Positions 11,599 to 48,763 of a stretch of DNA of 64,000 bases are shown here, one piece after another; within the stretch, counting starts at the first letter, position 1; the number at the start of each line of letters is the position of its first letter. The stretch lies in the NCBI GenBank assembly GCA_951406725.2, contig OX597843.1, positions 3,348,001 to 3,412,000 of the forward strand. Direction: 5' to 3'. The translations under genes were made by a program, and so were the position numbers. Below the pieces are notes generated by a model. It saw only the letters and a program-made list of their open reading frames with translations, was not told the origin of the DNA and made no database searches. This DNA is from Octopus vulgaris. Taxonomy: Eukaryota.

Positions 11599-12395
11599 TC
11601 ACCAATTCTGTTGCTGGATGCTTGTATCCCTGGAGATTACATCAGGGTAGGAGAGTGTGCACCCTCTAGTATCGTGCGTAGATGGCTTCCAGCGGAGAAG
11701 AGTAGAAATTACTTCGTTTTCAGCTCTACAATAATGTCCAGCAAACTGGACTCTCCTACCTTTCACAAGAGATGACACAGGTGGTAGTTTCCCATCTATT
11801 TGTACTTTGGTTGGATGACTCTTCCACGAGAGATTTTGAGCTCTCATAAGGAGGCGAGTGTAGGTTCAATCGAACCGCCTCTCAAGCTTCTTTGATAACG
11901 TCCAGGTTTCTGAGCCATATAGTAGAATTGGTTCGACTGTGGCTTTGAAGATTTTAAGTTTGAAATCTCAACAACCCTGCAACCTATGGCTCTGAGATGA
12001 TACTGGTGGTAGTTTTCCATATATTTGTACTTTGGTTGGATGACTCTTCCACGAGAGATTTTGAGCTCTCATAAGGAGGCGAGTGTAGGTTCCATCCAAC
12101 CACCTCTCAAGCTTCTTTGATAACGTCCAGGTTTCTGAGCCATATAGTAGAATTGGTTCGACTGTGGCTTTGAAGATTTTAAGTTTGAAATCTCAACAAC
12201 CCTGCAACCTATGGCTCTGAGATGATACTGGTGGTAGTTTTCCATATATTTGTACTTTGGTTGGATGACGCTTCCACGAGAGATTTTGAGCTCTCATAAG
12301 GAGGCGAGTGTAGGTTCCATCCAACCGCCTCTCAAGCTTCTTTGATAACGTCCAGGTTTCTGAGCCATATAGTAGAATTGGTTCGACTGTGGCTT
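11599..12395 (-). mobile_element. LINE (RTE/RTE-X-like) RT C-terminal fragment, partly triplicated as a 225-bp tandem unit
   Basis: Minus strand KIFKATVEPILLYGSETWTLSKKLERR...RLLMRAQNLSWKSHPTK...RRVQFAGHYCRAENEVISTLLRWKP. The unit start ggtggtagttt occurs at 11780, 12005 and 12230. Confidence 0.85.
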
Positions 12396-12647
12396 GGTGT
12401 TAAGAGGCTATTTCTTTTTCCAATTTTTGGAGCGTATACTGGTTAGAAGGATGTCGTGAGCTGGTGTTGATCACATTCAGATATTTATCTGCCATCGATA
12501 CGGGAGCTAGTAAGGGGACCCCGACATTCATCATGTTCGGGTGGGGCTTTTTCCATGCCATATCTTTGAATATTTCACCAGGCAAGAATTGGATGGAATT
12601 CAGAAACAAACTCAGATCTGGAGATTTTAGTCAATTCTAAACTTAAC

Positions 12648-12797
12648 CCAATCACAGAATAATGTAATGCTGTCTCATTGTCTTTGTCACCGATTCCTAT
12701 CTTCTCCAAATTCTATCCTCAAACTTATTATTCTTGTGTTACCCACTTCACAGGCTTCGTTAGGTAAGTGCCATTGTCTAAATTTGATTAAGTTTAT
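12648..12797 (-). pseudogene. Decayed ankyrin-repeat exon (paralogue of the 48172-48323 exon); duplicate at ~18877-19026, partial copy at ~13153-13300
   Basis: cag|INLIKFRQWHLPNEACEVGNTRIISLRIEFGEDRN, frameshift, DKDNETALHYSVIG, then gttaagtttagaattgactaaaatc; about 150 nt. Confidence 0.75.
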
Positions 12798-13549
12798 CTG
12801 GACTTTACCTAAACTTCTTGTCAAAATGTAAAATTTCCCAAACCACACCTTTTGCAAAGGACAACCCAAAAGAGACTGAAATCTTTAGATACTCTGCTTC
12901 GCAATGTGAAAATCCTTTCTTCTTGGTTCTGGTCCTCGTTCTCATTGCCCCTTTAATTTCTTCACATGAATCCACGCAGATCTAAAGATCACTGCTAATC
13001 TATTCAGGTGTCTACCAGGGCGCCCTGGCATCAGTCACCTCCGGGTGGTGCTTTTTGCATGCCTCACTTTTGGATGTTACACTACTCTAGAATTGGGAGG
13101 AATTTTGAAACCAAACTCAGATCTGGAGATTTTAGTTAATTCTAAACTTAACCCAATCACAGAATAATGTAATGCTGTTTCATTGTCTTTGTCACAGATT
13201 CCTCTCATCTCCAAATTCTATCCTCAAACTTATTATTCTTGTGTTACCCACTTCACAGACATCGTTAGGTGAGTGTTATCATCTAAATTTCATTAAGTTT
13301 ATTAGCCGTAAGTGGGGAGTTTTTTTCCCCTTTTTTGTAAGGACAAACTCATCTCATTCTCATTGCCCCTTTCATTTCTTCACATGACCCCACCCTAGCT
13401 CCAAAGATCGCTGCTACTCTATTCAGGAGGCCCTGGCATCGAACACTTTCGGGTTGTGCTTCTTATGTGCCGCATTTTGCATATTTCACAAGTCGAGAAT
13501 TGCAAGAAATTTTAAAGCAAATCTGAGGATTTTAGTTAATTCTGACCCT

Positions 13550-13680
13550 ACCCAATCATGGCATCATTGAAAGCTGTAGGAGCAATTTTGTCACTCATGT
13601 TGAAATCAACTCCAACCCCTTTCTACAAGTTTGTTAAAACTGTGTCGCCCTGTTTACAAGCCTTTCTAACATTAAAGGAG
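13550..13680 (-). pseudogene. 3' half of the ankyrin exon from which the 51/49-bp satellite expanded
   Basis: Minus strand ACKQGDTVLTNL*KGVGVDFNMSDKIAPTAFNDAMIG|gtagggtcagaattaactaaaatc. Confidence 0.75.
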
Positions 13681-16600
13681 TTTGTCCCATGAACTGTGTC
13701 GCCTGTTTAAAGCCAACATTAAAGGAGTTTGTCCACATAAAACTCTGTCCTTTCTACAGGCCATCATTAGATGAGTTTGTCCCCATGAAACTGTGTCGCT
13801 CTGTTTACAAGCCAACATTAAAGGAGTTTGTTCACATAAAACTCTTGTCCTTTCTACAGGCCATCATTAGATGAGTTTGTCCCCATGAAACTGTGTCGCT
13901 CTGTTTAGAAGCCAACATTAAAGGAGTTTGTCCACATAAAACTCTTGTCCTTTCTACAGGCCATCATTAGATGAGTTTGTCCCCATGAAACTGTGTCGCC
14001 CTGTTTAGAAGCCAACATTAAAGGAGTTTGTCCACATAAAACTCTTGTCCTTTCTACAGGCCATCATTAGATGAGTTTGTCCCCATGAAACTGTGTCGCC
14101 CTGTTTAGAAGCCAACATTAAAGGAGTTTGTCCACATAAAACTCTTGTCCTTTCTACAGGCCATCATTAGATGAGTTTGTCCCCATGAAACTGTGTCGCC
14201 CTGTTTAGAAGCCAACATTAAAGGAGTTTGTCCACATAAAACTCTTGTCCTTTCTACAGGCCATCATTAGATGAGTTTGTCCCCATGAAACTGTGTCGCC
14301 CTGTTTAGAAGCCAACATTAAAGGAGTTTGTCCACATAAAACTCTTGTCCTTTCTACAGGCCATCATTAGATGAGTTTGTCCCCATGAAACTGTTCGCCC
14401 TGTTTAGAAGCCAACATTAAAGGAGTTTGTCCACATAAAACTCTTGTCCTTTCTACAGGCCATCATTAGATGAGTTTGTCCCCATGAAACTGTGTCGCCC
14501 TGTTTAGAAGCCAACATTAAAGGAGTTTGTCCACATAAAACTCTTGTCCTTTCTACAGGCCATCATTAGATGAGTTTGTCCCCATGAAACTGTGTCGCTC
14601 TGTTTACAAGCCAACATTAAAGGAGTTTGTCCACATAAAACTCTTGTCCTTTCTACAGGCCATCATTAGATGAGTTTGTCCCCATGAAACTGTGTCGCCC
14701 TGTTTACAAGCCAACATTAAAGGAGTTTGTCCACATAAAACTCTTGTCCTTTCTACAGGCCATCATTAGATGAGTTTGTCCCCATGAAACTGTGTCGCCC
14801 TGTTTAGAAGCCAACATTAAAGGAGTTTGTCCACATAAAACTCTTGTCCTTTCTACAGGCCATCATTAGATGAGTTTGTCCCCATGAAACTGTGTCGCTC
14901 CATTTACAAGCCAACATTAAAGGAGTTTGTCCACATAAAACTCTTGTCCTTTCTACAGGCCATCATTAGATGAGTTTGTCCCCATGAAACTGTGTCGCTC
15001 TGTTTACAAGCCAACATTAAAGGAGTTTGTCCACATAAAACTCTTGTCCTTTCTACAGGCCATCATTAGATGAGTTTGTCCCCATGAAACTGTGTCGCTC
15101 TGTTTACAAGCCAACATTAAAGGAGTTTGTCCACATAAAACTCTTGTCCTTTCTACAGGCCATCATTAGATGAGTTTGTCCCCATGAAACTGTGTCGCCC
15201 TGTTTACAAGCCAACATTAAAGGAGTTTGTCCACATAAAACTCTTGTCCTTTCTACAGGCCATCATTAGATGAGTTTGTCCCCATGAAACTGTGTCGCCC
15301 TGTTTACAAGCCAACATTAAAGTAGTTTGTCCACATAAAACTCTCGTCCTTTCTACAGGCCATCATTAGATGAGTTTGTCCCCATGAAACTGTGTCGCCC
15401 TGTTTACAAGCCAACATTAAAGGAGTTTGTCCACATAAAACTCTTGTCCTTTCTACAGGCCATCATTAGATGAGTTTGTCCCCATGAAACTGTGTCGCCC
15501 TGTTTAGAAGCCAACATTAAAGGAGTTTGTCCACATAAAACTCTTGTCCTTTCTACAGGCCATCATTAGATGAGTTTGTCCCCATGAAACTGTGTCGCTC
15601 TGTTTACAAGCCAACATTAAAGGAGTTTGTCCACATAAAACTCTCGTCCTTTCTACAGGCCATCATTAGATGAGTTTGTCCCCATGAAACTGTGTCGCCC
15701 TGTTTAGAAGCCAACATTAAAGGAGTTCGTCCCCATAAAACTGTTGTCTTTTCTACAGGCCATCATCAGATGAGTTCGTTCCCATAAAACTGTGTCGCCC
15801 TGTTTAGAAGCCAACATTAAAGGAGTTTGTCCACATAAAACTGTCGTCTTTTCTACAGGCCATCATCAGATGAGTTTTACAAGTCGTCCCCATAAAACTG
15901 TGTCGCCCTGTTTACAAGCAAACATTAAAGGAGTTCGTCCCCATAAAACTGTCGTCTTTCTACAGCCATCATCAGATGATTCGTTCCCATAAACTGTTCG
16001 CCCTGTTTAAAGCAAACATTAAAGGAGTTCGTCCCCATAAAACTGTGTCGCCCTGTTTACAAGCAAACATTAAAGGAGTTCGTCCCCATAAAACTGTCGT
16101 CTTTTCTACAGGCCATCATCAGATGAGTTCGTTCCCATAAAACTGTGCGCCCTGTTTACAAGCAAACATTAAAGGAGTTCGTCCCCATAAAACTGTCGTC
16201 TTTTCTACAGGCCATCATCAGATGAGTTCGTTCCCATAAAACTGTGTCGCCCTGTTTACAAGCAAACATTAAAGGAGTTTGTCCACATAAAACTCTTGTC
16301 CTTTCTACAGGCCATCATTAGATGAGTTTGTCCCCATGAAACTGTGTCGCCCTGTTTAGAAGCCAACATTAAAGGAGTTTGTCCACATAACACTCTTGTC
16401 CTTTCTACAGGCCATCATTAGATGAGTTTGTCCCCATGAAACTGTGTCGCTCTGTTTACAAGCCAACATTAAAGGAGTTTGTCCACATAAAACTCTTGTC
16501 CTTTCTACAGGCCATCATTAGATGAGTTTGTCCCCATGAAACTGTGTCGCCCTGTTTAGAAGCCAACATTAAAGGAGTTTGTCCACATAAAACTCTCGTC

Positions 16601-18027
16601 CTTTCTACAGGCCATCATTAGATGAGTTTGTCCCCATGAAACTGTGTCGCCCTGTTTAGAAGCCAACATTAAAGGAGTTTGTCCCCATAAAACTGTCGTC
16701 TTTTCTACAGGCCATCATCAGATGAGTTCATTCCCATAAAACTGTGTCGCCCTGTTTAGAAGCCAACATTAAAGGAGTTTGTCCACATAAAACTGTCGTC
16801 TTTTCTACAGGCCATCATCAGATGAGTTTGTCCCCATAAAACTGTATCGCCCTGTTTACAAGCCAACATTAAAGGAGTTCGTCCCCATAAAACTGTGTCG
16901 CCCTGTTTACAAGCAAACATTAAAGGAGTTCGTCCCCATAAAACTGTGTCGCCCTGTTTACAAGCAAACATTAAAGGAGTTCGTCCCCATAAAACTGTCG
17001 TCTTTTCTACAGGCCATCATCAGATGAGTTCGTTCCCATAAAACTGTGTCGCCCTTTTTACAAGCAAACATTAAAGGAGTTCGTCCCCATAAAACTGTCG
17101 TCTTTTCTACAGGCCATCATCAGATGAGTTCGTTCCCATAAAACTGTGTCGCCCTGTTTACAAGCAAACATTAAAGGAGTTCGTCCCCATAAAACTGTCG
17201 TCTTTTCTACAGGCCATCATCAGATGAATTCGTTCCCATAAAACTGTATCGCCCTGTTTACAAGCCAACATTAAAGGAGTTCGTCCCCATAAAACTGTGT
17301 CGCCCTGTTTACAAGCAAACATTAAAGGAGTTCGTCCCCATAAAACTGTCGTCTTTTCTACAGGCCATCATCAGATGAGTTCGTTCCCATAAAACTGTGC
17401 CGCCCTGTTTACAAGCAAACATTAAAGGAGTTCGTCCCCATAAAACTGTCGTCTTTTCTACAGGCCATCATCAGATGAGTTTGTCCCCATAAAACTGTAT
17501 CGCCCTGTTTACAAGCCAACATTAAAGGAGTTCGTCCCCATAAAACTGTGTCGCCCTGTTTACAAGCAAACATTAAAGGAGTTCGTCCCCATAAAACTGT
17601 GTCGCCCTGTTTACAAGCAAACATTAAAGGAGTTCGTCCCCATAAAACTGTGTCGCCTGTTTACAAGCCAACATTAAAGGAGTTTGTCCCCATAAAACTG
17701 TGTCGCCCTGTTTACAAGCCAACATTAAAGGAGTTCGTCCCCATAAAACTGTCGTCCTTTCTACAGGCCATCATTAGATTAGTTTGTCCCCATGAAACTG
17801 TGTCGCCCTGTTTACAAGCAAACATTAAAGGAGTTCGTCCCCATAAAACTGTGTCGCCCTGTTTACAAGCCAACATTAAAGGAGTTTGTCCCCATAAAAC
17901 TGTGTCGCCCTGTTTACAAGCAAACATTAAAGGAGTTCGTCCCCATAAAACTGTCGTCCTTTCTACAGGCCATCATTAGATTAGTTTGTCCCCATGAAAC
18001 TGTGTCGTCCTGTTTACAAGCAAACAT
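13636..18027 (-). repeat. Satellite array 2: 51-bp and 49-bp monomers, mostly as a 100-bp dimer, encoding half-ankyrin motifs
   Basis: The 51-bp unit reads LWGRTPLMFACKQGDTV (17 codons) and the 49-bp unit reads GQTHLMMACRKDDSF. See ORFs 16756-16971, 17409-17624 and 17712-17927. Confidence 0.92.
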
Positions 18028-18075
18028 TTCATTAATTAAAGTAAACATCTGGAGATTTTAGTTAATTCATCATCT

Positions 18076-18530
18076 GTGGCACTTGCTCGGGTGTTTTCAA
18101 GGTCCCCTGCGGTAGTGTGGATACAGTTTCTCACCTCACCACTCTATGCTGCAACTCCTTCCTACCTTGTTTTGTGGGTGGGGAAAATCTCTGCCAGGGT
18201 AAGCTGGTATTTTAGCTGTTCTCTGGTACTCTTCTGGTGGGAGTGTCCTTTTGATTTAGCTGGGCTTGCTGTCGAATACATCCCTTGGCAATCTAGGTTT
18301 GTGCATGCTTCTCACATGGCCTTCCCTCCTGAGGCTGTCTGAAGAGCAGGAAGTCTTCAATGCTCAGATGTTGGCCTGCTTGAGCGCTTCAATGTTGGTG
18401 ATGGATTCCTTCCATTAGATATCTACGACAGAGCAAAGCCATCTGTGGTGGACGTCCTCCAATCGGATCCAGCAATGTTCCTGAAGCTGAATGCCCTTCC
18501 ACATGCCAACCACTCTGGACTGTAGCGTGT
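18076..18530 (-). mobile_element. Degenerate RTE LINE 3' fragment
   Basis: RLEDVHHRWLCSVVDI*WKESITNIEALKQA...LRREGHVRSMHKPRLPRDVF resembles RTE LE.FHQRCLRSIL.I.W...ITN.E.L..A...LRWAGHV.RM...RLPK.V. Confidence 0.75.
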
Positions 18531-18604
18531 GCTTTTTATGTGCCATCAGCGAAGGAGCCAGCCTGAGGGAGCTGGTGTTGATCACATTCGGATATTTATC
18601 TGCC

Positions 18605-18724
18605 AAACACTGCCAGATCTGACTGGCCTGGTGCAGCCTTCGGGCTCCCCAGACCCCAGTTGAACCGTCCAACCCATGCTAGCATGGAAAGCGGACGTTA
18701 AATGATAATGATGATGATGATGAT
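18605..18724 (+). mobile_element. 5'-truncated SINE with (GAT)n tail
   Basis: ...ccgtccaacccatgctagcatggaaagcggacgttaaatgataatgatgatgat. The same family occurs in reverse at 33700, 36775, 46450 and 51755. Confidence 0.8.
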
Positions 18725-19369
18725 CGATACAGGAGATAGTAAGGGGACCCCGGCATTCGTCATGTTCGGGTGGGGCTTTTTCCATGCCATATCTTTGAAT
18801 ATTTCACCAGGCAAGAATTAGATGGAATTCAGAAACAAACTCAGATCTGGAGATTTTAGTTAATTCTAAACTTAACCCAATCACAGAATAATGTAATGCT
18901 GTCTCATTGTCTTTGTCACCGATTCCTCTCATCTCCAACTTCTATCCTCAAACTTATTATTCTTGTGTTACCCACTTCACAGGCTTCGTTAGGTAAGTGC
19001 CATTGTCTAAATTTGATTAAGTTTATCTGGACTTTACCTAAACTTCTTGTCAAAATGTGAAATTTCCCAAACCACACCTTTTGCAAAGGACAACCCAAAA
19101 GAGACTGAAATCTTTAGATACTCTGCTTCGCAATGTGAAAATCCTTTCTTCTTGGTTCTGGTCCTCATTCTCATTGCCCCTTTAATTTCTTCACATGAAT
19201 CCACGCAGCTCTAAAGATCACTGCTAATCTATTCAGGTGTCTACCAGGGCGCCCTGGCATCAGTCACCTCCGGGTGGTGCTTTTTGCATGCCTCACTTTT
19301 GGATGTTACACTACTCAAGAATTGGGACGAATTTTGAAACCAAACAGATCCGAAGGTTTTAGTTAATTC

Positions 19370-22300
19370 TAAACTTACCCAATCACAGCATGATGTAAAG
19401 CTGTCTAACCCTTTTTGTCTCTTGTTTTAATATCTGCCCCCTCTTTTAACATGTTTAAGACATCTATGTTGCCCTCTCAGCCAAGGCTTTGATTGTGCAA
19501 TGTTCATTCTAAACTTACCCAATCACAACACAATGTAAAGCTGTCTAACCATTTTTATTTACCACGTCGAGATCATCTCCAAATTTTGTCATCAAATTTG
19601 GATGGATCTTGTCTTAATATCTGCTCCCTCTTTTAACATGTTTAAGACATCTATGTTGCCCTCTCGGCCAAGGCTTTGATTGTGCAAATGTTAATTCTAA
19701 ACTTACCCAATCACAACACAATGTAAAGCTGTCTAACCATTTTTATTTACCACGTCGAGATCATCTCCAAATTTTGTCATCAAATTTGGATGGATCTTGT
19801 CTTAATATCTGGTCCCACTTTTAACATGTTTAAGACATATATGTTGCACCGTTTACAAGCAGCCATGAGTTACGTTTCACCATTTTCATCTGATATCTAT
19901 TTTTCCAAGTACTGATTGCAGCCACCCTTCATTTCTCCCCTTGTGTTGTGCACCATGATTACGGGGTTTCACCCACCCCTTTGTCTCCAATTTGGACACA
20001 TGAAAACCCCTTCTACTTCTGACTGCTGTGGTGTCACACTTGGGTGACCCCATTCCTAATGGAATGTGGATCTCAGTAGGAGCAACACTTCAGTTTGCCC
20101 TACCCTGACTGACATGTATCAAAGCACTCTCTCAATGGGGCACGCTCATCTCCTCTCAGCCAAGGCTATGATTGTGCAATGTTAATTCTAAACTTACCCA
20201 ATCACAACATGATGCAATGCTGTGTGACCTTTTTTGTCATGAAATCTATTGAATTCGTGTTACCCTGTTAACAGGCATTTTTAGATAAATTTCAGTATTT
20301 GAATTTATTTATTGAATCCTTTGAGGACCCTTTTTTTTTTCTTTTTTTCCTATTATGCAATCTGTCTAAGCTCCTGGTCAGAAAGGAATACATCCCTAGC
20401 CACACCTTCTGCACTGGACAGCCCAGCAAAGAGACTGTTTAAACACACTGCTTCTTGGTGTGACATCATTTCCCCTTGCGTCTGGTTCCCTCAATCCACA
20501 TTACCCGCTTCATTTCTTCTCGTGACCCCATCCCAGATATGAAGATCACTGTTCCTCTATTCTGTTTTGAAATCGTCCAAGCCAGTGGGTGGCCAATTTT
20601 TCCCTTTTTGATATTTGAAGGGTCACAGGGCTGGTGTCTACCTCTCCTTCGTCACCAGCGGTGCTAACCACCCTCAGAACCCCCGATATGTGACATGGCA
20701 TTCCTCCCACCAATTTCTATTTTCCGCAGACTGATCGCAGACACCCTTCATTTCTCTCTATGTGTTGTGCGACATGAATTAGGGGGCTTCACCCACCCCT
20801 TTGTCTCCGATCTGGAGAGATGCAACCCCTTCTACAACTGACCGATGTCGTGTCACACTTGTCTGCATTCATTCTGGGATGTGGATCTCAGTCGGAGCAA
20901 CTTTCCAGTTTGCCCTACCCTGACTGACATGTATCAATAGACTGTCTCAATGGGGCACATTCATCCCCTTTCAGCCAAGGCTTTGATTGTGCAATGTTAA
21001 TTCTAAACTTATCCAATCACAACATGATGCAAAGCTGTCTAACCATAGACGTCTTTTGTTTTAATATCTGCTCCCTCTTTTAACAGGTTTAAGACATCTA
21101 TGTTGCCCCCTCAGCCAAGGCTTTGATTGTGCAATGTTCATCCTAAACTTACCCAATCACACCATAATGGAAAGCTGTCTAACCCTTGTTAGATTGTGTT
21201 TTAATATATGCCCCCTCTTTTAACATGTTTAAGACATCTATGTTGCCCCCTCAGCCAAGGCTTTGATTGTCCAATGTTCATTCTAAACTTACCCAATCAC
21301 AGCATAATGGAAAGCTGTCTAACCCTTGTTAGATTGTGTTTTAATATATGCCCCCTCTTTTAACAGGTTTAAGACATCTATGTTGCCCCCTCAGCCAAGG
21401 CTTTGATTGTCCAATGTTCATTCTAAACTTACCCAATCACAGCATAATGGAAAGCTGTCTAACCCTTGTTAGATTGTGTTTTAATATATGCCCCCTCTTT
21501 TAACATGTTTAAGACATCTATGTTGCCCCCTCAGCCAAGGCTTTGATTGTCCAATGTTCATTCTAAACTTACCCAATCACAGCATAATGGAAAGCTGTCT
21601 AACCCTTGTTAGATTGTGTTTTAATATATGCCCCCTCTTTTAACAGGTTTAAGACATCTATGTTGCCCCCTCAGCCAAGGCTTTGATTGTCCAATGTTCA
21701 TTCTAAACTTACCCAATCACAGCATAATGGAAAGCTGTCTAACCCTTGTTAGATTGTGTTTTAATATATGCCCCCTCTTTTAACATGTTTAAGACATCTA
21801 TGTTGCCCCCTCAGCCAAGGCTTTGATTGTCCAATGTTCATTCTAAACTTACCCAATCACACCATAATGGAAAGCTGTCTAACCCTTGTTAGATTGTGTT
21901 TTAATATATGCCCCCTCTTTTAACATGTTTAAGACATCTATGTTGCCCTCTCAGCCAAGGCTTTGATTGTGCAATGTTCATCCTAAACTTACCCAATCAC
22001 AGCATAATGGAAAGCTGTCTAACCCTTGTTAGATTGTGTTTTAATATATGCCCCCTCTTTTAACATGTTTAAGACATCTATGTTGCCCCCTCAGCCAAGG
22101 CTTTGATTGTGCAATGTTCATCCTAAACTTACCCAATCACACCATAATGGAAAGCTGTCTAACCCTTGTTAGATTGTGTTTTAATATATGCCCCCTCTTT
22201 TAACATGTTTAAGACATCTATGTTGCCCCCTCAGCCAAGGCTTTGATTGTGCAATGTTCATTCTAAACTTACCCAATCACACCATAATGGAAAGCTGTCT

Positions 22301-25300
22301 AACCCTTGTTAGATTGTGTTTTAATATCTGCTCCCTCTTTTAACATGTTTAAGACATCTATGTTGCCCTCTCAGCCAAGGCTTTGATTGTGCAATGTTAA
22401 GTCTAAACTTACCCAATCACAGCACAATGTAAAGCTGTATAACCCTTTGTGTCTCTTGTTTTAATATCTGCTCCCACTTTTAACATGTTTAAGACATCTA
22501 TGTGGATCTCAGTAGGAGCAACACTTCAGTTTGCCCTACCCTGATTGACATGTATCAAAGCACTCTCTGAATGGGGCATGTTCATCCCCTTCAGCCAAGG
22601 CTTTGATTGTGCAATGTTCATTCTAAACTTACCCAATCACACCATAATGGAAAGCTGTTTAACCCTCATTAGTTCGTGTCTTAATATCTGCTCCCTCTTT
22701 TAACATGTTTAAGACATCTATGTTGCCCTCTCAGCCAAGGCTTTGATTGTGCAATGTTCATTCTAAACTTACCCAATCGCAACATGATGTAAAGCTGTCC
22801 GACCCTTGTTGGATTTTGTTCTCATATCTGCTCCCTCTTTTAACATGTTTATAACATCTATGTTGCCCCCTCAGCCAAGGCTTTGATTGTGCAATGTTAA
22901 TTCTAAACTTACCCAATCACAACATGATGCATTGCTGTGTGACCTTTTTTGTCATGAAATTTATTGAATTCGTGTTACCCTGTCAACAGGCATCGTTAGA
23001 TATATTCCAGTATTTGAATTTATTTATTGAATCCTTTGAGGACCCTACTTTTTTTCTTTTGCATGCAATCTGTCCAAGCTCCTGGTCAGAAAGGAATACA
23101 TCCCTAGCCACACCTTCTGCACTGGACAGCCCAGCAAAGAGACTGTTTAAACACACTGCTTCTTGGTGTGACATCATTTCCCCTTGCGTCTGGTTCCCTC
23201 AATCATCACATTACCCGCTGAATTTCTTCTCGTGACCCCACCCCAGATATGAAGATCAGTGCTCCTCTATTCTGTTTTGAAATTGTCCAAGCCAGTGGGT
23301 GGCCAATTTTCCCTTTTGATCTTTGTAGGGTCACAGGACTGGTGTCTACCTCTCCTTCGTCACCAGCGGTGCTAACCACCCTCAGAACCCCCGATATGTG
23401 ACATGGCATTCCTCCCACCAATTTCTATTTTCCGCAGACTGATCGCAGACACCCTTCATTTCTCTCTATGTGTTGTGCGACATGTATTAGGGGCTTCACC
23501 CACCCCTTTGTCTCCGATCTGGAGAGATGCAACCCCTTCTACAACTGACCGATGTCGTGTCACACTTGTCTGCATTCATTCTGGGATGTGGATCTCAGTC
23601 GGAGCAACTTTCCAGTTTGCCCTACCCTGACTGACATGTATCAATAGACTGTCTCAGTGGGGCACATTCATCCCCTTTCAGCCAAGGCTTTGATTGTGCA
23701 ATGTTAATTCTAAACTTACCCAATCACAACATGATGCAAAGCTGTCTAACCATAGACGTCTTTTGTTTTAATATCTGCTCCCTCTTTTAACAGGTTTAAG
23801 ACATCTATGTTGCCCTGTTTACAAGATGCCATGAGTAATGTTTCACCATTTTCATCTGTTTGGTGAATATCCACTGATATCTATTTTTCCTATACTGATT
23901 GCAGTCACCCTTCATTTCTCCCCTTGTGTTGTTGCACCAAGCGTTACGGGGTTTCACCCACCCTTTTGTCTCCAATCTAGACAGACCAAAACCCTTTCTA
24001 ATTCTGACTGCTGTGGTGTCTCACTTGGGTGACCCCATTCATAAAGGAATGTGGATCTCAGTAGGAGCAACACTTCAGTTTGCTCTTCCCTGATTGAAGT
24101 GTATCAAAGCACTCTCTCAATGGGGCACATTCATCCCCTCTCAGCCAAGGCTTTGATTGTGCAATGTTAATTCTAAACTTACCCAATCACAACATGATGC
24201 AAAGCTGTATGACCCTTACTGTCATGAAATTTATTGAATTCGTGTTACCCTGTTAACAAGCATCATTAGATAAGTTTCAGTATTTGAATTTATTTGCTGA
24301 ATTCCTTCAGGACCCTTCCTAACGCCAACCACTCCGTGAGTGTAGTGGGTGCTTTTACGTGATATTTACATGCATTAGGGGGCTTCACCCACCCCTTTGT
24401 CTCCGATCTGGAGAGATGCAACCCCTTCTACATCTGACTGATGTCATGTCACACTTGTCTGCATTCATTCTGGGATGTGGATCTCAGTCGGAGCAACTTT
24501 CCAGTTTGCCCTACCCTGACTGACATGTATCAATAGACTGTCTCAATGGGGCACATTCATCCCCTTTCAGCCAAGGCTTTGATTGTGCAATGTTAATTCT
24601 AAACTTACCCAATCACAACATGATGCAAAGCTGTCTAACCATAGACGTCTTTTGTTTTAATATCTGCTCCCTCTTTTAACAGGTTTAAGACATATATGTT
24701 GCCCTCTCGGCCAAGGCTTTGATTGTGCAATGTTCATTCTAAACTTACCCAATCACAGCACAATGTAAAGCTGTATAACCCTTTGTGTCTCTTGTTTTAA
24801 TATCTGCTCCCTCTTTTAACATGTTTAAGACCTCTATGTGGATCTCAGTCGGAGCAACACTTCAGTTTGCCCTACCCTGACTGACATGTATCAAAGCACT
24901 CTCTCAATGGGGCATGTTCATCCCCCTCAGCCAAGGCTTTGATTGTGCAATGTTCATTCTAAACTCACCCGATCACAGCATGATATAAAGCTGTATAACC
25001 CTTGTTGGATTTTGTTTTAATATCTGCTCCCTCTTTTAACATGTTTAAGACATCTATGTTGCCCTCTCAGCCAAGGCTTTGATTGAGCAATGTTAATTCT
25101 AAACTTACCCAATCACAGCACAATGTAAAGCTGTATAACCCTTTGTGTCTCTTGTTTTAATATCTGCTCCCTCTTTTAACATGTTTAAGACATCTATGTT
25201 GCCCCCTCAGCCAAGGCTTTGATTGTGCAATGTTCATTCTAAACTTACCCAATCACACCAAAATGGAAAGCTGTCTAACCCTTGTTAGATTGTTTTAATA

Positions 25301-28300
25301 TCTGCTCCCTCTTTTAACATGTTTAAGACATCTATGTTGCCCTCTCAGCCAAGGCTTTGATTGAGCAATGTTAATTCTAAACTTACCCAATCACAGCATA
25401 ATGGAAAGCTGTCTAACCCTTGTTAGATTGTGTTTTAATACATGCTCCCTCTTTTAACATGTTTAAGACATCTATGTTGCCCTCTCAGCCAAGGCTTTGA
25501 TTGTCCAATGTTCATTCTAAACTTACCCAATCACACCATAATGGAAAGCTGTCTAACCCTTGTTAGATTGTGTTTTAATATATGCCCCCTCTTTTAACAT
25601 GTTTAAGACACCTATGTTGCCCTTTCAGCCAAGGCTTTGATTGAGCAATGTTCATTCTAAACTTACCCAATCACACCATAATGGAAAGCTGTCTAACCCT
25701 TGTTAGTTTGTGTTTTAATACATGCTCCCTCTTTTAACATGTTTAAGACATCTATGTTGCCCTCTCAGCCAAGGCTTTGATTGTGCAATGTTCATCCTAA
25801 ACTTACCCAATCACACCATAATGGAAAGCTGTCTAACCCTTGTTAGATTGTGTTTTAATATATGCCCCCTCTTTTAACATGTTTAAGACATCTATGTTGC
25901 CCTCTCAGCCAAGGCTTTGATTGTGCAATGTTAATTCTAAACTTACCCAATCACAACATGATGCAAAGCTGTCTAACCATAGACGTCTTTTGTTTTAATA
26001 TCTGCTCCCTCTTTTAACAGGTTTAAGACATATATGTTGCCCTCTCAGCCAAGGCTTTGATTGTGCAATGTTAATTCTAAACTTACCCAATCACAACATG
26101 ATGCAAAGCTGTCTAACCATAGACGTCTTTTGTTTTAATATCTGCTCCCTCTTTTAACATGTTTAAGACATCTATGTTGCCCTCTCAGCCAAGGCTTTGA
26201 TTGTGCAATGTTAATTCTAAACTTACCCAATCACAACATGATGCAAAGCTGTCTTACCATAGACGTCTTTTGTTTTAATATCTGCTCCCTCTTTTAACAG
26301 GTTTAAGACATATATGTTGCCCTCTCAGCCAAGGCTTTGATTGTGCAATGTTAATTCTAAACTTACCCAATCACAACATGATGCAAAGCTGTCTAACCAT
26401 AGACGTCTTTTGTTTTAATATCTGCTCCCTCTTTTAACAGGTTTAAGACATATATGTTGCCCTCTCAGCCAAGGCTTTGATTGTGCAATGTTAATTCTAA
26501 ACTTACCCAATCACAACATGATGCAAAGCTGTCTAACCATAGACGTCTTTTGTTTTAATATCTGCTCCCTCTTTTAACAGGTTTAAGACATATATGTTGC
26601 CCTCTCAGCCAAGGCTTTGATTGTGCAATGTTAATTCTAAACTTACCCAATCACAACATGATGCAAAGCTGTCTAACCATAGACGTCTTTTGTTTTAATA
26701 TCTGCTCCCTCTTTTAACAGGTTTAAGACATATATGTTGCCCTCTCAGCCAAGGCTTTGATTGTGCAATGTTAATTCTAAACTTACCCAATCACAACATG
26801 ATGCAAAGCTGTCTAACCATAGACGTCTTTTGTTTTAATATCTGCTCCCTCTTTTAACAGGTTTAAGACATCTATGTTGCCCTCTCAGCCAAGGCTTTGA
26901 TTGTGCAATGTTAATTCTAAACTTACCCAATCACAACATGATGCAAAGCTGTCTAACCATAGACGTCTTTTGTTTTAATATCTGCTCCCTCTTTTAACAG
27001 GTTTAAGACATATATGTTGCCCTCTCAGCCAAGGCTTTGATTGTGCAATGTTAATTCTAAACTTACCCAATCACAACATGATGCAAAGCTGTCTAACCAT
27101 AGACGTCTTTTGTTTTAATATCTGCTCCCTCTTTTAACAGGTTTAAGACATATATGTTGCCCTCTCAGCCAAGGCTTTGATTGTGCAATGTTAATTCTAA
27201 ACTTACCCAATCACAACATGATGCAAAGCTGTCTAACCATAGACGTCTTTTGTTTTAATATCTGCTCCCTCTTTTAACAGGTTTAAGACATATATGTTGC
27301 CCTCTCAGCCAAGGCTTTGATTGTGCAATGTTAATTCTAAACTTACCCAATCACAACATGATGCAAAGCTGTCTAACCATAGACGTCTTTTGTTTTAATA
27401 TCTGCTCCCTCTTTTAACAGGTTTAAGACATATATGTTGCCCTCTCAGCCAAGGCTTTGATTGTGCAATGTTCATTCTAAACTTACCCAATCGCAACATG
27501 ATGTAAAGCTGTCCGACCCTTGTTGGATTTTGTTCTCATATCTGCTCCCTCTTTTAACATGTTTATAACATCTATGTTGCCCCCTCAGCCAAGGCTTTGA
27601 TTGTGCAATGTTAATTCTAAACTTACCCAATCACAACATGATGCATTGCTGTGTGACCTTTTTTGTCATGAAATTTATTGAATTCGTGTTACCCTGTCAA
27701 CAGGCATCGTTAGATAGATTCCAGTATTTGAATTTATTTATTGAATCCTTTGAGGACCCTTTTTTTTTTCTTTTGCATGCAATCTGTCCAAGCTCCTGGT
27801 CAGAAAGGAATACATCCCTAGCCACACCTTCTGCACTGGACAGCCCAGCAAAGAGACTGTTTAAACACACTGCTTCTTGGTGTGACATCATTTCCCCTTG
27901 CATCTGGTTCCCTCAATCCACATTACCCGCTTCATTTCTTCTCGTGACCCCACCCCAGATATGAAGATCAGTGCTCCTCTATTCTGTTTTGAAATTGTCC
28001 AAGCCAGTGGGTGGCCAATTTTCCCTTTTTGATCTTTGTAGGGTCACAGGACTGGTGTCTACCTCTCCTTCGTCACCAGCGGTGCTAACCACCCTCAGAA
28101 CCCCCGATATGTGACATGGCATTCCTCCCACCAATTTCTATTTTCCGCAGACTGATCGCAGACACCCTTCATTTCTCTCTATGTGTTGTGCGACATGCAT
28201 TAGGGGGCTTCACCCACCCCTTTGTCTCCGATCTGGAGAGATGCAACCCCTTCTACAACTGACCGATGTCGTGTCACACTTGTCTGCATTCATTCTGGGA

Positions 28301-31300
28301 TGTGGATCTCAGTCGGAGCAACTTTCCAGTTTGCCCTACCCTGACTGACATGTATCAATAGACTGTCTCAGTGGGGCACATTCATCCCCTTTCAGCCAAG
28401 GCTTTGATTGTGCAATGTTAATTCTAAACTTACCCAATCACAACATGATGCAAAGCTGTCTAACCATAGACGTCTTTTGTTTTAATATCTGCTCCCTCTT
28501 TTAACAGGTTTAAGACATCTATGTTGCCCTGTTTACAAGATGCCATGAGTAATGTTTCACCATTTTCATCTGTTTGGTGAATATCCACTGATATCTATTT
28601 TTCCTATACTGATTGCAGTCACCCTTCATTTCTCCCCTTGTGTTGTTGCACCAAGCGTTACGGGGTTTCACCCACCCTTTTGTCTCCAATCTAGACAGAC
28701 CAAAACCCTTTCTAATTCTGACTGCTGTGGTGTCTCACTTGGGTGACCCCATTCATAAAGGAATGTGGATCTCAGTAGGAGCAACACTTCAGTTTGCTCT
28801 TCCCTAATTGAAGTGTATCAAAGCACTCTCTCAATGGGGCACATTCATCCCCTCTCAGCCAAGGCTTTGATTGTGCAATGTTAATTCTAAACTTACCCAA
28901 TCACAACATGATGCAAAGCTGTATGACCCTTTCTGTCATGAAATTTATTGAATTTGTGTTACCCTGTTAACAAGCATCATTAGATAAGTTTCAGTATTTG
29001 AATTTATTTGCTGAATTCCTTCAGGACCCTTCCTAACGCCAACCACTCCGTGAGTGTAGTGGGTGCTTTTACGTGATATTTACGTGCATTAGGGGGCTTC
29101 ACCCACCCCTTTGTCTCCGATCTGGAGAGATGCAACCCCTTCTACATCTGACTGATGTCATGTCACACTTGTCTGCATTCATTCTGGGATGTGGATCTCA
29201 GTCGGAGCAACTTTCCAGTTTGCCCTACCCTGACTGACATGTATCAATAGACTGTCTCAATGGGGCACATTCATCCCCTTTCAGCCAAGGCTTTGATTGT
29301 GCAATGTTAATTCTAAACTTACCCAATCACAACATGATGCAAAGCTGTCTAACCATAGACGTCTTTTGTTTTAATATCTGCTCCCTCTTTTAACAGGTTT
29401 AAGACATATATGTTGCCCTCTCGGCCAAGGCTTTGATTGTGCAATGTTCATTCTAAACTTACCCAATCACAGCACAATGTAAAGCTGTATAACCCTTTGT
29501 GTCTCTTGTTTTAATATCTGCTCCCTCTTTTAACATGTTTAAGACCTCTATGTGGATCTCAGTCGGAGCAACACTTCAGTTTGCCCTACCCTGACTGACA
29601 TGTATCAAAGCACTCTCTCAATGGGGCATGTTCATCCCCCTCAGCCAAGGCTTTGATTGTGCAATGTTCATTCTAAACTCACCCGATCACAGCATGATAT
29701 AAAGCTGTATAACCCTTGTTGGATTTTGTTTTAATATCTGCTCCCTCTTTTAACATGTTTAAGACATCTATGTTGCCCCCTCAGCCAAGGCTTTGATTGT
29801 GCAATGTTCATTCTAAACTTACCCAATCACACCAAAATGGAAAGCTGTCTAACCCTTGTTAGATTGTGTTTTAATATCTGCTCCCTCTTTTAACATGTTT
29901 AAGACATCTATGTTGCCCTCTCAGCCAAGGCTTTGATTGAGCAATGTTAATTCTAAACTTACCCAATCACAGCATAATGGAAAGCTGTCTAACCCTTGTT
30001 AGATTGTGTTTTAATACATGCTCCCTCTTTTAACATGTTTAAGACATCTATGTTGCCCTCTCAGCCAAGGCTTTGATTGTCCAATGTTCATTCTAAACTT
30101 ACCCAATCACACCATAATGGAAAGCTGTCTAATCCTTGTTAGATTGTGTTTTAATATATGCCCCCTCTTTTAACATGTTTAAGACACCTATGTTGCCCTT
30201 TCAGCCAAGGCTTTGATTGAGCAATGTTCATTCTAAACTTACCCAATCACAGCATAATGGAAAGCTGTCTAACCCTTGTTAGATTGTGTTTTAATACATG
30301 CTCCCTCTTTTAACATGTTTAAGACATCTATGTTGCCCTCTCAGCCAAGGCTTTGATTGTCCAATGTTCATTCTAAACTTACCCAATCACACCATAATGG
30401 AAAGCTGTCTAACCCTTGTTAGATTGTGTTTTAATATATGCCCCCTCTTTTAACATGTTTAAGACACCTATGTTGCCCTTTCAGCCAAGGCTTTGATTGA
30501 GCAATGTTCATTCTAAACTTACCCAATCACAGCATAATGGAAAGCTGTCTAACCCTTGTTAGATTGTGTTTTAATACATGCTCCCTCTTTTAACATGTTT
30601 AAGACATCTATGTTGCCCTCTCAGCCAAGGCTTTGATTGTCCAATGTTCATTCTAAACTTACCCAATCACACCATAATGGAAAGCTGTCTAACCCTTGTT
30701 AGATTGTGTTTTAATATATGCCCCCTCTTTTAACATGTTTAAGACATCTATGTTGCCCCCTCAGCCAAGGCTTTGATTGTGCAATGTTCATTCTAAACTT
30801 ACCCAATCACACCATAATGGAAAGCTGTCTAACCCTTGTTGGTTCATGTTTTAATATATGCCCCTTCTTTTAACCAGTTTAAGACATCTATGTTGCCCTC
30901 TCAGCCAAGGCTTTGATTGTCCAATGTTCATTCTAAACTTACCCAATCACACCATAATGGAAAGCTGTCTAACCCTTGTTAGATTGTGTTTTAATACATG
31001 CTCCCTCTTTTAACATGTTTAAGACATCTATGTTGCCCTCTCAGCCAAGGCTTTGATTGAGCAATGTTAATTCTAAACTTACCCAATCACAGCATAATGG
31101 AAAGCTGTCTAACCCTTGTTAGATTGTGTTTTAATACATGCTCCCTCTTTTAACATGTTTAAGACATCTATGTTGCCCCCTCAGCCAAGGCTTTGATTGA
31201 GCAATGTTAATTCTAAACTTACCCAATCACAGCATAATGGAAAGCTGTCTAACCCTTGTTAGATTGTGTTTTAATACATGCTCCCTCTTTTAACATGTTT

Positions 31301-32560: not shown

Positions 32561-32649
32561 TTTAGATAAATTTCAGTATTTGAATTTATTTGCTGAATTC
32601 TTTCTGGACCCTTTAAAAAAGTTTTTTTTAATGCAGTCGTCCCAAGCTT

Positions 32650-33505
32650 CTGAAATCTTGTTGAGGTCTGGAAGGAATTTGGCAAAAACTACAACATGAG
32701 GTATAGGAAAGGACTTCACAACAGGTACATACTTCACAACAGGTACATAATTCACAACAGGTACATGCTTCATAGAGCAGAGAAGGCCATTTTTAATACT
32801 TTCAAGGGCTTCATAGTTTATGTGATCTTCTTGAGATCGTGTATAATCAAAGGTAACGATCTTGTGGCCATCATACATATATTTCAGATCAGTGGACCTA
32901 CCATTTTCTAGACGGAGGCCATGCAAGGTTTGTATATAACAAAGGCGCAGGAGTGGCTGTGTGGTAAGTAGCTTGCTTACCAACCACATGGTTCTGGGTT
33001 CTGTCCAACTGCGTGGCACCTTGGGCAAGTGTCTTCTACCATAGCCCCGGGCCGACCAAAGCCTTGTGAGTGGATTTGGCAGACGGAAACTGAAAGAAGC
33101 CCGTCGTATATATGTATATGTGTGTCTGTGTTTGTCCCCCTAGCATTGCTTGACAACCGATGCTGGTGTGTTTACGTCCCCCGTTACTTAGCGGTTCGGC
33201 TAAAAGAGACCGATAAAATAAGTACTGGGCTTACAAAAAGAATAAGTCCCGGGGTCGATTTGCTCGATTAAAGGCGGTGCTCCAGCATGGCCGCAGTCAC
33301 ATGACTGAAACAAGTAAAAGAGTAATGTGATAAATAGGTCTTACCCGAGTTGCCTATCGGATCATAGTACCAGATGATAGATCCGGAATTCGGTTTCATT
33401 CGGATGTCCTGAATAAGCTTAAATTGCCATTTACGACAGGTAACGCCAGGTAACTCCAATAGAATGTTATCAAGACCCTTACGTTTCTTAGACTCGACAC
33501 AAAGC
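32650..33505 (-). pseudogene. rep: Endogenous CRESS-DNA virus Rep (SF3 helicase domain, nanovirus/alphasatellite-like), split by a SINE; the HUH domain is missing
   Basis: 33323-33505: WQFKLIQDIRMKPNSGSIIWYYDPIGNSGKTYLSHY (Walker A). 32650-32943: ENGRSTDLKYMYDGHKIVTFDYTRSQEDHINYEALESIKNGLLCSMK...PHVVVFAKFLPDLNKISE (Walker B, motif C region). Confidence 0.85.
32944..33322 (+). mobile_element. Full-length tRNA-derived SINE inserted into the Rep remnant
   Basis: Head ggcgcaggagtggctgtgtggtaag (A/B-box-like), internal (TA/TG)n, tail atgactgaaacaagtaaaagag. Many copies in the window. Confidence 0.9.
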
Positions 33506-37635: not shown

Positions 37636-38430
37636 AGGTGCAGGAGTGGCTGTGTGGTAAGTAGCTTGCTAACCAACCACATGGCTCCGTGTTCAGTCCC
37701 ACTGCGTGGCATCTTGGGCAAGTGTCTTCTGCTATAGCCCCAGGCCGACCAAAGCCTTGTGAGTGGATTTGGTAGACGGAAACTGAAAGAAGCCTGTCGT
37801 ATATATGTGTATATATATATATAGGCGCAGGAGTGGCTGTGTGGTAAGTAGATTGCTAACCAACCACATGGTTCCGGGTTCAGTCCCACTGCGTGACATC
37901 TTGGGCAAGTGTCTTCTGCTATAGCCTCGGGCCGACCACTGCCTTGTGAGTGGATTTGGTAGACGGAAACTGAAAGAAGCCTGTCGTATATATGTATATA
38001 TATATATATGTGTGTATATATATATATAGGCGCAGGAGTGGCTGTGTGGTAAGTAGCTTGCTAACCAACCACATGGTTCCGGGTTCAGTCCCACTGCGTG
38101 ACATCTTGGGCAAGTGTCTTCTGCTATAGCCTCGGGCCGACCAAAGCCTTGTGAGTGGATTTGGTAGACGGAAACTGAAAGAAGCCCGTCGTATATATGT
38201 ATATATATATATATATTTATGTGTGTGTATATGTTTGTGTGTCTGTGTTTGTCCCTCTAGCATTGCTTGACAACCGATGCTGGTGTGTTTATGTCCCCGT
38301 CACCTAGCGGTTCGGCTAGATAGAATAAGTACTGGGCTTACAAAGAATAAGTCCCGGGGTCGATTTGTTCGACTAAAGGCGGTGCTCCGGCATGGCCGCA
38401 GTCAAATGACTGAAACAAGTATAAGAGTAT
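37636..38430 (+). mobile_element. SINE with three tandem heads and one tail
   Basis: Heads at ~37636, ~37823 and ~38028, separated by (TA)n. Confidence 0.88.
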
Positions 38431-39850
38431 TAGTTTCAACAGTGGCGCTCAAGGTTGGATTGATCCACAAAACCTTTCTAGTCCTACAGGCTTTTATTCC
38501 CTTCATTATTGATGTTGGATCTCCTCTGAGAATTCGGTGCTATGCAGAGCGTCATTATATTACGGGCCGAGGTACCTGGATAATTACCAGAAATCCCTGG
38601 CCTGGCAGTGTTTCCGTGCGGCTTTACCTGTTAGCGACAAGCTATCAAGGCACGGAGGTGTCGTCTCGCCGACATGTCCGCGATGCGAGCGGGATAGGGA
38701 AACCGTCTTGCACGCATTCGTGGAGTGCCCGGAGTTATCGGGACTGATTGCTTTTGCCGAACTACTGTTGTCAGTGAATGGAAGAGTACAGCTATCGGCT
38801 GAATCTATTATCAAGTTTGTACCACCTCCCTTCCTCAGCAGGGAAAGGAAGGCTTGTTTTTCCTGCGTAGTAGCCATACTGAAAGAAACAGTATGGAAGA
38901 CGCGTACGAAAGGTATAGTGACAGGTACCTTTGTATCCGGCCAGGAATTCATACTCTCTTTTACTTGTTTCAGTCATTTGACTGCAGCCATGCTGGAGCA
39001 CCGCCTTTAGTCGAGCAAATCGACCCCGGGACTTATTCTTTGTAAGCCCAGTACTTATTCTATCCGTCTCTTTTGCCAAACCGCTAAGTGACGGGGACGT
39101 AAACACACCAGCATCGGTTGTCAAGCAATGCTAGAAGGGACAAACACAGACACACAAACACACATATATATATATACATATATACGACAGGCTTCTTTCA
39201 GTTTCCGTCTACCAAATCCACTCACAAGGCATTGGTCGGCCCCGGGGCTGTAACAGAAGACACTTGCCCAAGATGTCACGCAGTGGGGCTGAACCCGGAA
39301 CCATGTGGTTGGTAAACAAGCTACTTACCACACAGCCACTCCTGTGCCTATTTATATATATATACGACAGGCTTCTTTCAGTTTCCGTCTACCAAATCCA
39401 CTCACAAGGCTTTGGTCGGCCCCGAGGGCTATAGCAGAAGACACTTGCCCAAGATGCCACGCAGTGAGACTGAACCCGGAACCATGTGGCTGGTTAGCAA
39501 GCTACTTACCACACAGCCACTTTTTTAGTTACCACCTTGGTTGTAAGATCAGGCTGGAGAAGAGGTGTCTGTCACGAGATATGTTTGTGAAAAGACGGAA
39601 ATCTGTGGCTTGCAAGCTGGGTATATTTGGCACCAGGTAAGTGTGGCCGGATCAAGAATTAAAGGTTCTACCCAGATGACTGGGTTCCATGCCCTACTAT
39701 GTAAAAATCATATTGTAACCTTTATATTGTAAATATTGTACACATTATATTGTAAGTACTAAAACGTTTTAAGCTACTACACCCTATATGTTTGTCTGTA
39801 TTTGTATGTCCCCTCTATGTAATGCCTTGATGGCGAATTTTCATGAAATA
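38430..39850 (+). mobile_element. Tx1/L1-clade LINE ORF2 C-terminus (zf-RVT) and 3' UTR, interrupted by a minus-strand double-headed SINE (~38950-39520)
   Basis: LDNYQKSLAWQCFRAALPVSDKLSRHG...CPRCERDRETVLHAFVECP...KETVWKTR. It resumes after the SINE as FFSYHLGCKIRLEKRCLSRDMFVKRRK. A related fragment is at 63150-63300. Confidence 0.85.
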
Positions 39851-40540
39851 AAGTAGCTTGTCTACCAACCACACGGTGCCGGGTTCAGTCCCACTGCGTG
39901 GCACCTTGGGCAATTGTCTTCTACTATAGCCTCAGGCTGACCAAAGCCTTGTGAGTGGATTTTGTAGACGGAAACTGAAAGAAGCCTGTCGTATATATGT
40001 ATATATATAGGCGTAGGAGCGGCTGTGTGGTAAGTAGCTTGCTAACCAACCACGTGGTTCCAGGTTCAGTCCCACTGCGTGGCATCTTGGGCAAGTGTCT
40101 TCTGCTATAGCCTCGGGCCGACCAAAGCCTTGTGAGTGGATTTGGTAGACGGAAACTGAAAGAAGCCTGTCGTATATATGTATATATATATAGGCGTAGG
40201 AGTGGCTGTGTGGTAAGTAGCTTGCTTATGAACCACATGGTTCCGAGTTCAGTCCCACTGCATGGCATCTTCGGCAAGTGTCTTCTGCTATAGACCCGGG
40301 CCGACCAAAGCCTTGTGAGTGGATTTGGTGGACGGAAACTGAAAGAAGCCCATCGTATATATATATATAGGCGTATGAGTGGCTGTGTGGTAAGTAGCTT
40401 GCTTATGAACCACATGGTTCCGAGTTCAGTTCCACTGCGTGGCACTTTGGACAAGTGTCTTCTGCTATAGCCTCGGGCCGACCAAAGCCTTGTGAGTGGA
40501 TTTGGTGGACGGAAACTGAAAGAAGCCTGTCGTATATATG

Positions 40541-40585
<45 letters not shown>

Positions 40586-42196: not shown

Positions 42197-42227
<31 letters not shown>

Positions 42228-43232: not shown

Positions 43233-43263
<31 letters not shown>

Positions 43264-43340
43264 GATACAATAAATAAATAAAAATAGATTAATAAATTAA
43301 ATAAATAAATAAATAATCTAAAACGAGTAATTTCATTGGC
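41120..43340. repeat. Irregular ~200-bp tandem repeat with variable (AAT)n spacer
   Basis: Core gtcacgaagatatccgaagtgaactgtggagttgacacggaaacaaccgaggtcttgttatatagttttgcc recurs about a dozen times. Confidence 0.9.
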
Positions 43341-46261: not shown

Positions 46262-46449
46262 CTGTATATTGTTGTTTGCTTCTCTTTATAAATTTCTTCA
46301 GAGCTATTTTTACATTCTTTCTTCATATCTTTTATTCAAAAAGCATGGATTTTGACAATGGTGACATCGAAGGTGCCGAAAACATTATCAAGAAAAATAA
46401 AGATGAGGTAAGTTGTTCTTTGAATTGCCTTGACTATTTATTATTTTAT

Positions 46450-46920: not shown

Positions 46921-47046
46921 ATATATACATATACAGATAGAGAGAGAGCTTTCTTAGGGGGAGATCAATCAGTGTCTCTTTCATATCCCATTTTTTTTCA
47001 CTCATGCATCTTCCTTACTCTGTCTGTCTGTCGCTCTTTCCTTTAA

Positions 47047-48728: not shown

Positions 48729-48763
<35 letters not shown>

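Follow-up and report, generated by a model that had tools for sequence, protein, structure and literature searches.

A probable case of a neutral, exon-derived minisatellite with dimeric higher-order repeats in Octopus vulgaris

We analyzed a 64,000-nucleotide stretch of Octopus vulgaris DNA (NCBI GenBank assembly GCA_951406725.2, contig OX597843.1, positions 3,348,001 to 3,412,000 of the forward strand; below, "the window," with positions counted from its first letter). On its minus strand, a 51–base pair (bp) piece of a broken ankyrin exon is copied ~88 times head to tail over ~4.4 kilobases (kb). We consider it quite probable that this array is a neutral, gene-derived minisatellite organized as a dimeric higher-order repeat. 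The array and the exon part that it adjoins are composed as follows:

13635 to 18027, minus strand: minisatellite array of 49 A units (51 bp) and 38 B units (49 bp), all whole, and one partial A unit
13635 to 13685, minus strand: terminal A unit, continuous with the exon remainder
13552 to 13634, minus strand: remaining 3′ part of the parent ankyrin exon, which aligns colinearly to its paralogues and has an in-frame TAG at 13625-13623
13550 to 13551, minus strand: GT splice donor at a position common to paralogous exons

Cutting the array into monomers yielded the 87 whole units; the partial A unit corresponds to positions 17990-18027. Tandem Repeats Finder called a period of 100 bp at 13670-18028 (43.5 copies, 93% matches). 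The initial annotation had described a 51-bp (17-codon) unit alternating with a paralogous 49-bp unit, and both procedures bear this out; the unit peptides that it quoted are present in the right part of the array, but the commonest forms on the left differ from them at a few residues. Apart from a terminal pair of A units at the left end, alternation is strict through position 15984, and runs of A are confined to the region right of 15985 (run lengths from the left end: 2, 2, 3, 2, 5, and 3). All B units are single (38 of 38), and BB was never seen. Units of ~10 to 100 bp standing head to tail at one locus correspond to a minisatellite or local tandem repeat; as to a satellite in the strict sense, the array covers 4.4 kb and has no second copy elsewhere in the window. 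Identity between dimers exceeds that between adjacent monomers, as in dimeric higher-order repeats, because A and B are separated by seven substitutions and a gap, while diversity (π) in the left block is 0.006 to 0.027 and an exact run of 394 bp exists at offset 100.

Past the last unit, the minus strand reads KQGDTVLTNL*KGVGVDFNMSDKIAPTAFNDAMIG, followed by GT at 13551-13550. The last unit passes in codon register into this exon remainder and its donor, and the alignment is colinear with the paralogues codon for codon, as expected from the earlier claim that the array runs directly into its parent exon. The alignment of the flank to ankyrin exon homologues, on which the initial annotation had staked the exon origin, holds at the DNA level: the exon-only flank (13552-13634) gave p = 0.0005 (2000 shuffles) against five of six paralogous exons and p = 0.002 against the sixth. 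A profile made of paralogues only detected the flank with E = 4e-9, single A units with E of ~1e-5, and single B units with E of ~0.01. In-frame A runs match positions 2-14 of the 33 positions of Pfam Ank (E of ~1e-11 summed over three stretches); the 38–amino acid (aa) flank alone has no Pfam match. The Ank motif, the homology to intact paralogues, and the codon register together characterize the unit as a derivative of an ankyrin exon.

The parent exon is 60 to 70% identical to the other copies tested (14 rows). It falls outside a clade of seven 140-type units (support 96/97), its own placement, on a long branch, being left open by the tree. The breakpoints differ too: the array unit is the first third of the exon, and the 140-bp unit consists of the remaining exon plus intron. 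Judging by these alignments, the parent exon is an old paralogue of the exon behind the neighboring 140- and 187-bp arrays; because both the paralogue and the breakpoints are different, the origin of the array is separate. The independent origin proposed at the outset is thereby upheld. The further proposal that the exon family seeded satellites twice is right about separate origins, but the count is too low, since arrays with periods of 86, 140, 187, and 225 bp arose in the same 33 kb.

At the right edge of the array, one further feature is relevant:

18047 to 18068, minus strand: 22-bp copy of the post-donor intron upstream of the array (22 of 22 positions match); the 5′ end of the parent exon is missing here

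The expansion can be seen to be intra-exonic on one side only, because the right array end adjoins this intron copy and the 5′ end of the exon is gone. A trace of the exon start at this edge amounts to one 10-bp match (p = 0.018 in 1 of 10 comparisons) and is weak. The presence of an exon 5′ end at the right edge was rejected: an acceptor-like reading gave p = 0.14 against the exon at 48172 (see below), and the lone 10-bp match was not robust.

The array would have started when a stretch of 17 codons in one old exon paralogue underwent tandem duplication, probably by means of a few microhomologous bases that the exon family carries 51 bp apart. The initial annotation had pointed to the motif cagtttta, found at the unit junction and reported from the parent exon as well. 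The motif is present in the exon remnant, but once only, at the end of the last unit (13642) and inside it; it was found neither in 13552-13634 nor on the minus strand of 1-34000 outside the array. As evidence that slippage began at this motif, the argument is circular, because slippage needs two pre-duplication copies 51 bp apart and the upstream one would lie in the missing 5′ part; the shared motif was therefore rejected as proof of microhomology. We examined the junction register in unexpanded paralogues, among them an outgroup on the opposite strand:

48172 to 48323, plus strand: paralogous exon that has not expanded, with both AG and GT, which served as the outgroup

Matches of 4 to 8 bp at unit spacing occur in three of seven paralogue lineages. 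The 48172 exon carries a 4-bp match at offset 51 (4 of 52 offsets are equally good), one lineage carries a 5-bp match (3 of 55 offsets are as good), and a lineage with a 1-bp deletion carries a 7- to 8-bp match at offset 50. At the neighboring 140-bp and 360-bp joins, where both parents are visible, the overlap is 4 bp each. These matches make a microhomology start of the array likely, and several points weigh against it. Four of the seven lineages have no match at unit spacing, and one copy of a positive lineage matches at 3 bp only. A rough binomial estimate for the lineage matches (p of ~0.014) assumes independence of lineages that are related, with a threshold set afterward. The 4-bp overlaps are short and come from just two joins, and a third join, inside the 187-bp unit, has no overlap with the parents tried. 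The first junction of the array itself is unreadable, its upstream half having been deleted.

Along the array, the following segments can be distinguished:

13733 to 15679, minus strand: left block of strict AB dimers with derived alleles and low diversity (π of 0.027 for A and 0.006 for B)
15680 to 16282, minus strand: first right-type block, containing one AA pair, an insertion of 8 bp, and clustered one-base deletions at 15939-16032
16283 to 16831, minus strand: copy of 15331-15879 at offset 952 (549 bp with 12 mismatches), which places dimers of the left type within the right part
16683 to 18027, minus strand: right block with ancestral-type alleles, A runs of up to five, and higher diversity (π of 0.040 for A and 0.049 for B)

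Alleles are clustered along the array (p = 1e-4), and the phase of shared alleles is kept from A to B throughout whole blocks. The monomer phylogeny that the initial annotation called for is rough (29 distinct monomers, 51 columns, with ten units that have indels or altered ends excluded); it separates A from B (support 100/99) and groups left-type B (93/93) and left-type A (90/90) as clades. The left allele set is derived, because at site 45 the terminal unit has the allele of the right block, and three more changes separate A from left-type B than from right-type B. The terminal unit also contains a 5-bp insertion copying a motif of the flank and of B. A smooth left-to-right gradient was rejected, the allele blocks being interleaved. 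The earlier description of dimers on the left shifting to mixtures on the right is correct for the A runs in the right part, but it passes over two allele blocks interleaved by the 952-bp duplication and the fact that the left dimers are young and derived.

When AB junctions were compared with BA junctions, the longest perfect match on the left was at most 10 bp in 506 of 506 pairs; on the right, it was mostly 13 bp and up to 22 bp (195 pairs). From this pattern we infer that, on the left, the array was held in a 100-bp register once its junctions had diverged, and that slips by a single unit could still happen on the right. AB would have been amplified by slippage and unequal crossing-over. 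While A-to-B and B-to-A junctions were alike, the register could have slipped by one unit, forming A runs; three junction changes would then have cut the shared match to 10 bp, after which fixation was limited to 100-bp steps and a young block of pure dimers spread. An out-of-register exchange of ~950 bp may subsequently have interleaved both blocks, and a deletion may have taken away the 5′ end of the exon. The absence of BB would need no selection, as AA, once present, could expand via its 51-bp identity. It counts against the phase-locking link that it is drawn from one array. We regard as doubtful the wider idea that dead copies of this ankyrin exon family keep acting as a nursery of satellites in octopus, because its coding sequence has short matching words exactly 17 codons apart from which 51-bp duplications arise again and again, with junction-driven phase locking; the array would matter more if the family had given rise to 51-bp arrays independently at other loci. 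If true, the array records a switch from monomer slippage to locked dimers, caused by the three unit-junction changes, and provides a natural test of higher-order repeat formation with the parent sequence known.

Some of these details may stem from the assembly. The array contains 14 one-base deletions compared to ~9 private substitutions and no one-base insertions. Eleven of the 14 deletions fall in two 95-bp patches, 13686-13780 and 15939-16032 (p = 0.002), and one patch sits at a block boundary. Indel-bearing units are more frequent in the array (9 of 87) than in the 140/187-bp arrays (2 of 92; p = 0.03). Clustered one-base deletions are a signature of long-read consensus error. The clusters suggest a local assembly error that makes the order and number of units insecure and so tells against the layout given above; therefore, the edge units, including the terminal 5-bp insertion, and the copy number need read support. 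That the unit number, the 952-bp duplication, and the edge units are partly a long-read consensus or assembly artifact laid over a real, possibly different array is conceivable but on balance unlikely: A and B units agree in the phase of their shared alleles throughout whole blocks, and the duplicated segment differs from its copy at 12 positions. Edge units of real arrays also decay.

For the array as an exon-derived dimeric repeat, the relationship between A and B can be read from 14 paralogous copies. At sites 9, 11, and 17, most copies carry the B state (at site 17, 8 of 14 carry B and none carries A); at sites 27, 29, and 33, most carry the A state; and site 22, the last of the seven differing sites, is mixed. 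Because of this distribution, B would most simply be a sister of A from one old duplication, with three to four changes per branch. The two copies would have diverged into A and B by that number of changes each, with B losing the 2 bp that now form the gap. All changes derived in A fall in the first half-unit and all those derived in B in the second, which hints at chimerism and is a point against simple descent. The dimer could then be a chimera, with B, or the halves of A and B, coming from another exon paralogue or from flank-templated patches in error-prone repair. The first 22 bp of B indeed match the paralogues termed beta and gamma better than A does (13 to 17 versus 9 to 15 of 21), but retained ancestral states explain this likeness, and a base present in B is absent from all beta and gamma copies. 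Perfect segregation by half-unit, with three versus four changes, has a probability of 2/35 by our own count and is not significant. Ten consecutive bases of B are identical to the flank immediately beyond the last unit; the 8-bp core of this stretch reappears in the terminal unit as an insertion, but that insertion adjoins an error-like patch. The neighboring 187-bp unit likewise holds a stretch matching a second paralogue. Overall, we think a chimeric dimer unlikely and prefer the descent of A and B as sisters.

It is far less probable still that a transposon picked up an ankyrin fragment, landed next to what was left of an exon, and brought the unit with it as a subrepeat. Remains of mobile elements abound in the window (a Pif1-type helicase, for instance, lies in the plus-strand ankyrin gene described below), but the last unit keeps its codon register on passing into the rest of the exon and the donor, and the array unit has no match to other repeats within the window. 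In blastn searches of the window, 13620-13780 had no match outside the array and 17990-18080 matched only the array's own flanks. The array region has no Rfam match.

Stops number 75 to 81 in each frame across the array, and the open stretches reach 86 aa at most. One of 12 distinct A variants is synonymous, compared to 32 of 153 possible changes. The array translation had no matching protein of 93 to 298 aa among 8000 candidates, and no structured RNA was found by Rfam in 12000-20000. The array thus has neither the frame open throughout nor the purifying selection of a coding tandem repeat; coding use was rejected, and we conclude from the sequence that the array is presumably neutral and encodes nothing. 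That runs of the 51-bp unit persist because they encode a protein of 17-residue half-ankyrin repeats is hardly credible: the unit is 17 codons long, A runs give open frames of up to 86 aa matching Pfam Ank, and the A-derived changes shift A toward what we take to be the usual ankyrin T-P-L motif, but every B shifts the frame, the flank contains a stop, an acceptor is lacking, A variants have no synonymous excess, no protein matches, and one-third of random duplications would keep the frame.

Much of this has precedents. Microhomology-mediated tandem duplication is common and mostly neutral (PMC13167724), and the birth of minisatellites has been described (Haber and Louis 1998, as cited in PMC13167724). 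Microhomology-born minisatellites resemble the octopus array in that the repeat arises from nonrepetitive DNA, with short matches at unit spacing, and is neutral; here, in contrast, one array end is deleted, which makes the diagnostic matching ends unreadable, and the case for microhomology comes from paralogues. Higher-order repeats of dimeric type, like repeats formed by duplication and divergence, are standard (PMC5615363). As in those satellites, two diverged monomers were coamplified and variant blocks spread by unequal exchange, whereas the octopus array spans 4.4 kb at one known locus, with monomer runs beside dimers. The CapA satellite, ~1500 bp long and present in up to 100,000 copies, comes from a single-copy intron of NOS1AP (bioRxiv 10.1101/213868). 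It, too, is a tandem repeat traceable to sequence within a gene, but CapA is intronic and the octopus array is exonic, with 51/49-bp units and 88 copies in view. Drosophila Y-linked genes are surrounded by duplicated exons, and deletions there were attributed to microhomology-mediated repair (PMC8794474). Many partial exon copies near a gene are common to both cases; in Drosophila, whole exons are involved, and in octopus, the unit is a sub-exon piece.

A review points out that breakpoints have yet to be analyzed in coleoid cephalopods (PMC12988792). In the literature at the level of titles and abstract openings, we found neither an exon-derived repeat in octopus nor the present locus. As far as the sources cited here go, microhomology duplication, dimeric higher-order repeats, and gene-internal repeat origin are known already, and the array adds another case. 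It points to no new function. The origin of a tandem repeat is rarely traceable, and the array is a clean teaching or test case for repeat birth because one window contains the parent exon together with paralogues that did not expand, two blocks of alleles, and a junction change that may fix the dimer register.

The 48172 exon belongs to a degenerate ankyrin and RING-like gene remnant on the plus strand (46345-51188), in which a short first exon is followed by the 48172 exon, then by a second ankyrin exon, and finally by a last exon rich in Cys. The 48172 exon is 100% identical to part of a predicted O. vulgaris protein and 92% identical to part of an O. sinensis one. The last three exons align in order to a coral protein (P0202) with scores of 76, 72, and 57 versus shuffle maxima of 48, 47, and 54, so that the match of the Cys-rich RING-like piece is marginal (57 versus 54). 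From its Pfam accessions, we take the domains of P0202 to be of the Mind bomb (MIB) type. Colinearity of the two exons and the Cys-rich last exon with the coral protein recalls the MIB ankyrin-RING ubiquitin ligases; unlike in those, the best matches here are generic ankyrin proteins, and the RING-like exon has no Pfam RING match. In PDB, that exon gave only weak matches to IAP RING structures (E of 0.86 and 5.2). The N-terminal MIB-specific domains were not found in the predicted proteins P0001 and P0002, although no search aimed at these domains was made. The other database matches were generic long ankyrin proteins with 30 to 48% identity. An exon query for the parent protein retrieved P0001 and P0002 only (two of three candidates), and no octopus name appeared among the best 120 of 176 profile matches (187 to 2000 aa) that might have represented an intact octopus parent protein. 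A MIB-like source family is thus a tentative lead suggested by these alignments. In the same remnant, the exon at 49076-49230 (plus strand) is ankyrin-like, but not in the frame in which both predicted octopus proteins read it, suggesting that the two species share a lost exon. The last intron contains a Pif1-type helicase fragment (49478-50467, plus strand; Pfam Pif1_2B_dom, E = 8.5e-15), presumably Helitron-like.

The array sits in the middle of a decayed exon cluster, and two copies of one segment bracket it:

1123 to 32600, minus strand: host cluster with 117 copies of the same exon end and donor
18723 to 19404, minus strand: segment 96.6% identical to 12494-13178, the two copies bracketing the array

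The exon-end copies are mostly spaced by 140 bp (68) or 187 bp (22), and 95 of the 117 have a stop within the last 10 codons. Tandem repeats with a period of at least 30 bp make up 71% of the first 32.6 kb compared to 22% of the remaining window; right of 32.6 kb, there are 13 period calls of 113 to 360 bp, in unrelated repeats. Several arrays exist at the locus, and the exon is not seen to amplify more readily than its surroundings, because unrelated nearby repeats were tandem-amplified too; the tandem cover of the cluster is nevertheless higher. Other tandem arrays, with periods of 34 to 360 bp, lie at 37636-40552, 41344-43283, 52659-53075, 53812-54365, and 56597-57422. Because such arrays are many and several have units resembling short interspersed nuclear elements (SINEs), local tandem duplication appears to be general in the window.

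Within the cluster, a 225-bp array at 11769-12395 (2.8 copies, 97.8% identical) consists of non-ankyrin DNA with no Pfam match, which we take to be the 3′ region of a long interspersed nuclear element. Larger tandem duplications also occur in the cluster: four exon ends are repeated 4714 bp away (22913-24609 versus 27627-29323), and a single one is repeated 2143 bp away (3588 versus 5731). Beta, gamma, and one further paralogue (32600-32560, 19060-19030, and 11075-11050, minus strand) look coding-like by eye upstream of the exon start and lack an acceptor; the plus-strand gene has an intron where these three read coding-like, possibly reflecting intron loss or partial processing.

Beside the cluster, 32648-32932 and 33316-33462 (minus strand) are fragments, split by SINE-like repeats, that resemble the helicase part of Rep from circular Rep-encoding single-stranded (CRESS) DNA viruses. 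They matched, at 0.92 in the ESM Atlas, a cluster of mostly Cressdnaviricota and had no match in Pfam, PHROGs, or PDB; they are probably an endogenous viral fragment. The Rep-like fragment ends inside a short stretch common to the start of the ankyrin cluster. Retroelement remains occur at 38513-39007 and 55358-55816 (plus strand; zf-RVT, E = 1.3e-8, and a weak RVT_1 match, E = 0.035). An intact frame of 518 codons at 60733-62289 (minus strand) contains about ten C2H2 zinc fingers.

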